Origin: a virus | Taxonomy: Duplodnaviria > Heunggongvirae > Uroviricota > Caudoviricetes | Strand: one strand, 5' to 3' | DNA: 9,779 bases | Virus record (IMG/VR): IMGVR_UViG_2740892231_000007 | Shown here: one piece after another, positions 9,001-9,779 of the stretch | How positions within the stretch are numbered: position 1 is the stretch's first letter | Layout of the letters: each line of letters begins with the position of its first letter | Program-made: the position numbers

Positions 9001-9779
9001 CTTGATATCATCGTCGATCCCCGCCTTGATGATATCAGCGAAAAACAATGGTACATGCTTTCCGCACAGGGAACGGACACAATCGAGGTGGCTTATCTTG
9101 ATGGCAATGACGAGCCTTACCTTGAACAGCAGGAAGGTTTTATCGTTGACGGCGTGGCCTGGAAAGTCCGTATTGATGCAGGTGTGGCAGCTCTGGATTA
9201 TCGCGGTATGGTCAAATCAGGCGGGACAGATTCACTATGACAACAAGGCGGCACCAGCCGCCTTTTTTGCGGGTCCTCCTGGTGGGGTGGGCCTGAACAC
9301 GGGGCGGGCGGCGCGGAAAAAAGCGCATTTTTGTGATTTTATCGTCATCATCATCATGTGTGTAACCTATTGTTTTTAATGTGGTTGATGCAAAAAAGAT
9401 GATGATTGTGGTTAATTTTTGTTCGACATCTTTTAGCGTGACAGATTCTTTACAAAAAATCTGAGCTTGTTTTCTTCACCAGCGCGATGGGGGCACAATG
9501 ACAGAAGCCGAAATACTGGGATTAATCCGCCGCGTCGCCGGAATCAGCCAGCAGGCTGACGAACAGGCCACGCAGCCGGACAGCATGACCGCCGAAAATT
9601 ATGCGCGTGTGGTTGCTGAGGTGATGCGCCGTGATGGTATCCAGCTTAATGATGCGGATATGCGCGACATACGGATCCGCGTTCTGGAAATGCTGGCCTA
9701 CAATCGCCGCGTTGAACTGTATCGGGAGAAAGAAAAAATTACGTACCACTGGAAAAAGCCGGAGCGGTTACGGCGTTAA

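Follow-up and report, generated by a model that had tools for sequence, protein, structure and literature searches.

Two putative lambda-family cos sites flank the capsid gene of a phage-inducible chromosomal island of Escherichia coli

The analyzed stretch of DNA (hereafter the window, 9,779 nucleotides) is a phage-inducible chromosomal island (PICI) of E. coli, about 9.7 kb in size and located at tRNA-Pro, which is a mosaic relative of the island EcCICFT073. This classification is based on the annotation of the homologous island at tRNA-Pro, Pfam matches, the iterons at positions 5975-6170, and the genes shared with EcCICFT073. The integrase start codon and the stop codon of a 93-aa ORF form the exact borders of the window. 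The first part of the gene order comprises the integrase, an AlpA-like HTH regulator, an Icd-like gene, a DUF4222 gene, and a RepA-type helicase gene with three iterons; the second part comprises a PerC-family activator, a 64-aa ORF, a fusion of a ClpP-like protease with a major capsid protein, and the 93-aa ORF. This arrangement has the features of Gram-negative PICIs of the EcCICFT073 type: a size of about 10 kb, an integrase and an AlpA-like regulator, iterons behind the replication gene, no terminase, and, in the late region, cos together with a capsid homologue. Many E. coli genomes have the island inserted beside tRNA-Pro. Identity to the counterparts in EcCICFT073 is 83-100% for the Icd-like, DUF4222, and PerC genes, for the terminal 93-aa ORF, and for several small ORFs. 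The two islands differ in their integrase, replication gene, and capsid module.

Three genes occupy the late region, all on the plus strand. The 64-aa ORF (7160-7354; phrog_4934, function unknown) also precedes the capsid gene in related islands, where it is conserved. It is followed by the gene for the fusion of a ClpP-like prohead protease with an HK97-fold major capsid protein (7351-9240), which is annotated as such in RefSeq and matches phrog_133 at 2e-280. The fusion protein is 62% identical to its counterparts in Kluyvera and Yersinia islands and 51% identical to the fusion protein of helper-type phages with Gifsy-2-type heads, the same phages whose cos sites appear to be copied in the island (see below). 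It recalls the Ccm protein of SaPIbov5 and might, by this analogy, redirect capsid size. The 93-aa ORF (9498-9779; phrog_1561, function unknown) is 89% identical to the last ORF of EcCICFT073 and is found after cos throughout this island family, in EcCICFT073 as well as in many island contigs. A search of PDB sequences with this ORF gave nothing relevant and no Rpp match, and tblastn found no RppA homologue in the window, so that we rejected the 93-aa ORF as a candidate Rpp. The annotation of the island, which ends about 0.3 kb past the window, contains no terminase or portal genes. A capsid-forming PICI with its own HNH, TerS, TerL, and portal genes was therefore rejected as well, and the downstream HNH/TerS/TerL set that the initial annotation had suggested looking for is absent up to the island end.

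Several groups of repeats were observed in other parts of the island. Three 27-nt direct repeats (CTNTAAAAAGTGAGGCGNAAAAGTGAG) with spacings of 85 and 84 nt lie at 5975-6170, directly after the RepA-type helicase gene, and an inverted copy is found at 6035-6055; by analogy with other PICIs, these iterons are probably the replication origin of the island. The regions 2259-2320 and 2980-3070 contain two 21-nt repeats (TTTNTGTGTATTGACACNTTA) 41 nt apart, as well as a 16-nt element (ACTGGAATCCAGTATA) that occurs as direct and inverted repeats and overlaps divergent promoter-like hexamers. These repeats look like operators of regulatory regions. Just outside the window, after the 93-aa ORF, there are five GTGAC motifs with a period of 10-11 nt (15388-15440 of the island contig L001), and AGTTATACG repeats with the look of integrase arm sites are located near both island ends (6207-6260 and 15670-15695 of the same contig).

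The protease-capsid gene is flanked by two copies of a cassette, which we call A and B. They are direct repeats 2537 nt apart (family D1; 6721-6835 and 9258-9372), and their full extents are about 6728-6892 for copy A and about 9265-9460 for copy B. A gapped alignment of the two copies gives 82% identity over about 200 nt, and what they have in common is only the cosQ-cosN part described below. Each copy adjoins a predicted rho-independent terminator on the plus strand. The one at copy A (6709-6731) consists of a stem-loop at 6709-6726 and a T-run (fold -12.6 kcal/mol, z = -3.5), and the one at copy B (9245-9268) has the form GGCGGC-ACCA-GCCGCC followed by T6 (fold -15.3 kcal/mol, z = -3.3). 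A 270-nt non-coding spacer (6893-7159), which has no phage homologue and is conserved among island alleles, separates copy A from the 64-aa ORF. It contains a terminator-like hairpin on the minus strand (6941-6923) and weak, sub-threshold Rfam matches, and may hold a small antisense RNA or a promoter of the capsid operon. The Rfam scan gave three matches, all of them below threshold and none within the cassettes; thus, no known RNA family accounts for the cassettes.

The initial annotation had compared copy B with the left end of phage lambda on the basis of the 8-mer GGGCGGCG at 9306-9313 followed by CGGAAAAAAGCGCATTTTTGTGATTTTAT, and had noted a second cassette copy upstream. All of these elements are present in the window. 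The 8-mer itself is within chance expectation: it occurs twice in the window, where 0.58 occurrences are expected, and two are also reached by 21 of 200 shuffled sequences. Likewise, a stringent pairwise alignment of lambda cos with copies A and B scores no higher than with other tiles of the window. On these two grounds, we treated this resemblance as a lead rather than as evidence. A more specific test was provided by the lambda-derived composite motif GGGTCCT-N21-ACGGGGCGG, which matches exactly the two cassettes in the window, with no mismatches at 9271-9307 and two mismatches at 6734-6770. The expected number of matches is 0.01, and none of 200 shuffled sequences reaches two.

In BLAST searches, both cassettes match the cos regions of lambdoid phages with E-values from 1e-55 to 1e-66. 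The homologous DNA lies between Rz and terS, with terL next, in CP-1639, VT1-Sakai, and vB_EcoS-606R10, and at the record end, just before terS, in mEp460 and Ayreon; for copy A, all matches in lambdoid phages fall either into the Rz-terS interval or at record ends. A late gene regulator is annotated near the match in Ayreon, and we considered a Q/qut late promoter as a candidate. It was rejected, as the match is located at the record end, behind the lysis genes, and in the sister phages it directly precedes terS. The TerL proteins of the cognate phages have the GpA_ATPase and GpA_nuclease domains. The homology between the island and phages begins 2-6 nt before cosQ and stops just before the region of the phage terS ribosome-binding site, which indicates that only the cos unit was kept in the island. 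Together with the subsite match described next, these findings bear out the proposal of the initial annotation that a cos-type packaging site lies at 9245-9370; the support comes from true phage homology and not from the lambda 8-mer. The right boundary of that proposal has to be moved, since the full site extends to about 9432-9460.

We compared the individual subsites in a multiple alignment that included lambda, prophage 4 of CFT073, cos1 and cos2 of EcCICFT073, the phage cos sites, and the island cos sites. Conserved in this alignment are GGGTCCT, a spacer of 20-21 nt, and ACGGGGCGG, which is invariant at the lambda nick; the core is followed by CGCGG with a homopolymer run and then by a segment similar to lambda I1. 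Copy B has an intact cosQ (GGGTCCT, 9271-9277), located 21 nt ahead of ACGGGGCGG. The corresponding position in copy A (6734-6740) reads AGGTACT, with five of seven bases retained and two mismatches to GGGTCCT. The putative cosN is CG/GGGCGGAGGGGC/GC at 6763-6778 in copy A and CG/GGGCGGGCGGCG/CG at 9300-9315 in copy B (slashes mark the predicted core boundaries), and the latter includes the 8-mer at 9306-9313. The predicted first bases of the cohesive ends are 6765 and 9302, respectively.

The cosB elements were assigned by analogy with the R3-I1-R2-R1 order of lambda (PMC9026076). In copy A, the cosB region (6807-6892, plus strand), part of the segment homologous to the cos of CP-1639 and 1720a-02 (about 90% identity), contains a putative R3-like element GGCACCATCACCACCAC (6807-6823), a perfect IHF consensus WATCAANNNNTTR on the minus strand (6826-6838), an inverted R2-like element (6860-6869), and an R1-like element (6884-6892). 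In copy B, the cosB region (9343-9460, plus strand; phage homology ends at about 9460) contains the R3-like CGTCATCATCATCATG (9343-9358), an IHF-like site with one mismatch (9363-9375), the inverted R2-like GATGATGATTG (9398-9408), and the R1-like TTCGACATC (9422-9430). The IHF consensus has the same offset in both copies (bp 62-74), although IHF-pattern matches across the window are not above chance. The putative motifs thus recur in both cassettes in the expected order and orientation, that is, R3, IHF, inverted R2, and R1.

The nick positions given above are predicted from the alignment and from the ends of two GenBank records. The records of phages cdtI and Tritos end with ...CCTGCCACG (...CCACG) and start with GGGCGGGAGCGTC... 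(GGGCGGG...), so that they break inside the cos element, in the same register as lambda ...TTACG/GGGCGGCGACCT. By this register, the position of the end given in the initial annotation has to be shifted: the core reads ACG/GGGC GGGC GGCG, which places the proposed 8-nt start of cosN four nucleotides off, at 9306 instead of 9302. The record of mEp460_4F5 has its first base 4 nt ahead of the lambda register (CCAC GGGG...). Record starts therefore cannot be trusted in every case as a guide to ends, and those of cdtI and Tritos may have been set by analogy with lambda. For Tritos, the LF82 paper and the Genome Research paper give no method of end determination, and our literature search found no physical end mapping for the cos subtype of copies A and B.

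The G/C-rich core between ACG and GCGGAAAAA varies in sequence and in length (10-13 nt) from one cos site to another, even where the phage and island sites are nearly identical elsewhere (contigs L090-L169). This variation, which includes the cores of the window (6765-6776 and 9302-9313), could reflect either real diversity of cohesive ends or sequencing errors in G-runs, and it bears on the compatibility of the ends produced at the two copies. The 12-nt cores of copies A and B differ in the window and are identical in some other alleles. For the window allele, a molecule cut at copy A on one end and at copy B on the other would therefore have mismatched cohesive ends.

The cosB parts of the two cassettes correspond to two different groups of phages. 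Over about 167 nt (query positions 24-191), copy A has about 90% identity to the cos found in CP-1639 and 1720a-02. Copy B matches the cos of VT1-Sakai and several Stx2 phages over about 200 nt (query positions 24-225), with 88-90% identity. Cross-matches, of copy A to the phages of copy B type and vice versa, are restricted to the cosQ-cosN core of about 100 nt. Between the two phage groups, TerS is about 93% identical in its C-terminal part, which binds TerL, and only about 55% identical in the N-terminal 60 residues, which form the DNA-binding part. We classified 80 IMG/VR stretches with the cos core by their cosB type. All five phage contigs with the type-A cosB had a TerS whose N-terminal 60 residues are 100% of the CP-1639 type, and all six with the type-B cosB had N-termini that are 93-100% of the Sakai type, giving 11 concordant cases out of 11; other cosB types pair with other N-termini.

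This co-variation fits the existence of two packaging specificities without proving them. Both TerS types have an identical predicted recognition helix, HRQTVAAR, and the difference is confined to the wing region; in lambda and phage 21, the TerS wings can be swapped without effect (Feiss review, PMC9026076). Given the identical helix and the exchangeable wings, types A and B need not differ in specificity. In addition, cosB and terS are adjacent and co-inherited, so that the full concordance could mirror physical linkage instead of specificity. With these reservations, we tentatively consider that the two cassettes might form a dual-helper device, in which copy A fits the TerS of CP-1639 and 1720a-02 and copy B that of VT1-Sakai and Stx2 phages, and either helper packages a satellite devoid of Rpp. 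Copy A, having lost cosQ, would then serve for initiation only and would not truncate molecules begun at copy B. We see this as a possibility with less than even chances.

The comparison of island alleles revealed a different state of conservation for the two copies. The AGGTACT variant of copy A is found in five of the eight island alleles (the window and the contigs L106, L132, L139, and L151). In the remaining three (L001, L103, and L111), GGGTCCT is intact and the left half of copy A is similar to copy B, a pattern that suggests gene conversion between the copies or with phages. The cosQ of copy B is invariant in all seven aligned island sequences, and GGGTCCT is present in all of the approximately 70 phage cos sites. 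Neither the cosQ variant of copy A nor its cosN core GGGCGGAGGGGC was seen in any phage contig of IMG/VR, and copy A could be impaired for this reason. On the other hand, copy A remains 84-89% identical to the cosB of live phages and 95-99% identical among island alleles.

Copy B lies between the capsid gene and the 93-aa ORF, the position of the single cos in relatives from Kluyvera and Buttiauxella. In Kluyvera ascorbata (contig L013, 7271-7639), an 85-aa ORF directly follows the single cos; its last 63 or so residues, which start at an internal Met, are similar to the DNA-binding N-terminal domain of phage TerS and to no other part of that protein, and the ORF may be a relic of the captured phage segment or an Rpp-like decoy. 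A group of sibling islands (L094, 10764-11729; L106, L108, and L130) has the 64-aa ORF, the capsid fusion (62% identical), a cos with a third cosB type, a full-length DUF1441 TerS homologue (161 aa), and the 93-aa ORF, in this order.

These data raise the question of whether copy A works at all. It might be a decaying relic, a decoy, or a recombination scar, left for instance when the capsid module was swapped for that of another island or phage, and in this case only copy B would be functional and copy A would be useless or even harmful to transfer. Such an explanation agrees with the restriction of the two-nucleotide cosQ variation to copy A, with the absence of its cosN core from phages, and with the presence of only the copy-B position outside E. 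coli, as well as with the increased transfer of EcCICFT073 after deletion of its cos2 (PMC6092414). However, cosQ of lambda serves termination alone, and its loss would leave initiation unaffected. Moreover, the cosN flanks of copy A, its putative R3-, I1-, R2-, and R1-like elements, and their spacing are intact; its cosB sequence is conserved as described above; three alleles have a perfect cosQ; and the two-copy layout is present in about 143 complete E. coli genomes. We therefore regard an inactive copy A as rather unlikely.

A purely regulatory role of the cassettes is highly improbable. Each copy is located after a terminator and before a gene, and the gene of the PerC-family activator is just upstream of copy A, which could be expected if the cassettes were transcriptional control regions (a terminator with a promoter or an activator site, for example for a PerC-like protein or AlpA) for the capsid gene and the last ORF. 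Neither cassette contains a sigma-70-like promoter on the plus strand, however, and promoter-like matches in the window are below the level of shuffled sequences. The phage homologue occupies the Rz-terS interval of the late operon, which in lambda holds cos and lacks a promoter, and a control region cannot account for the subsite-by-subsite match to lambda cos. Finally, the suggestion that copy A is a P2/P4-type cohesive end for a P2-like helper, which came solely from the G-rich runs and the A-tract noted in the initial annotation, is refuted at the sequence level and deserves practically no credence, as the P2 left end (19-nt cos GGCGAGGCGGGGAAAGCAC...) aligns at least as well to 58 of 160 tiles of the window, copy A is 90% identical to lambdoid cos, and the island has no genes of P4 type (sid, delta, psu, and the like).

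We conclude that both cassettes are very probably lambda-family cosQ-cosN-cosB sites, carried in order that the terminase of a helper phage cuts and packages concatemers of the island. The similarity to lambda comprises GGGTCCT at a like distance from ACG/GGGCGG, CGCGG with a homopolymer, the I1-like segment, and putative inverted R-like repeats; in addition, the cognate phages have their cos between the lysis genes and terS, and a gpA-type TerL. In contrast to lambda, the spacer is 21 nt instead of 20 nt, the core and the R sites have other sequences, the cognate phages have a TerS of Pfam DUF1441 and not of the Nu1 family, and the direct pairwise similarity of lambda to copies A and B is not significant alone.

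Two cos sites in one island were described as unusual in the initial annotation, an overstatement in view of the precedents of EcCICFT073 and SaPIbov4. Like the window, EcCICFT073 has two cos sites in its late region with cosQ and cosN similar to those of lambdoid helpers, no terminase, and a capsid-protein gene adjoining cos; the same terminator hairpin precedes its cos1 and copy A. In this island cos1 was required for transfer, removal of cos2 raised transfer, and the double deletion abolished it (PMC6092414), and cloned cos sites made a plasmid transducible (PMC6092414, PMC6739421). The sites of EcCICFT073 have the lambda-type core GGGCGGCGACCT and are inverted, about 0.7 kb apart, and flank rppA, whereas those of the window are direct repeats 2.5 kb apart around the capsid fusion gene, have a core of the type GGGCGGGCGG, and lack an associated rpp. 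Furthermore, EcCICFT073 has a private cosB that resembles no phage cosB and is recognized by an Rpp-TerS heterodimer (PMC6739421), whereas each cosB of the window is about 90% identical to a real phage cosB. The signs of Rpp-dependent redirection are thus absent from the window, where we found no RppA match and where both cosBs are phage-like.

Other known satellites share some of these properties. The helper-embedded Gram-negative PICI 11capE has no terS and mimics cos directly, in that a segment of about 258 bp at the cos position is 90% identical between island and helper (PMC10111431); it differs by its single shared cos segment, a capsid gene of the lambda E type, and its location inside the helper prophage. 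SaPIbov5 and SaPIbov4 carry a helper cos in place of terS, SaPIbov4 has two putative cos sites, and SaPIbov5 encodes Ccm, a homologue of the capsid protein of its helper (PMC6092414, PMC8569155). These islands are Gram-positive and use an unrelated, HNH-dependent cos system, and redirection of capsid size has been demonstrated for them.

With neither a terminase of its own nor an Rpp adaptor, the island would rely on near-exact copies of helper cos sites, including cosB. By the scheme established in the PICI literature, a helper phage would induce the island, leading to its excision and replication. The DUF1441-type TerS of the helper would bind the matching cosB, and the gpA-type TerL would nick cosN. 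Packaging would then proceed rightward until a cos bearing cosQ is met in a sufficiently filled head. The 2.5-kb interval from copy A to copy B would be skipped if termination depends on head filling, as proposed for EcCICFT073, whose unit-length cos sites are packaged into heads of phage size (PMC6092414). Since in lambda cosQ is needed for termination, and cosN with cosB for initiation (PMC6739421, PMC9026076), the substitutions in the cosQ of copy A lead us to predict that this copy initiates packaging and terminates it poorly, and that copy B is capable of both.

PICIs with helper-like cos sites, even with two of them, are already known from EcCICFT073. Three features of the window appear to be new, as our literature search found no report of them: the cos sites are direct repeats on either side of the capsid gene, Rpp is missing, and each copy matches a different phage lineage. 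They are variations within a known mechanism. Lambdoid phages with Gifsy-2-type heads, including Shiga-toxin phages, are the probable mobilizers of the island, which bears on gene flow in STEC. The island family seems to use at least three packaging strategies, namely the redirection by Rpp to a private cosB in EcCICFT073, an own DUF1441 TerS in the sibling islands, and the copying of helper cos in the window. If the two cosB types do differ in specificity, the island would represent a natural case of host-range broadening through cos duplication, and would also offer a simple system for mapping the recognition of cosB by TerS.
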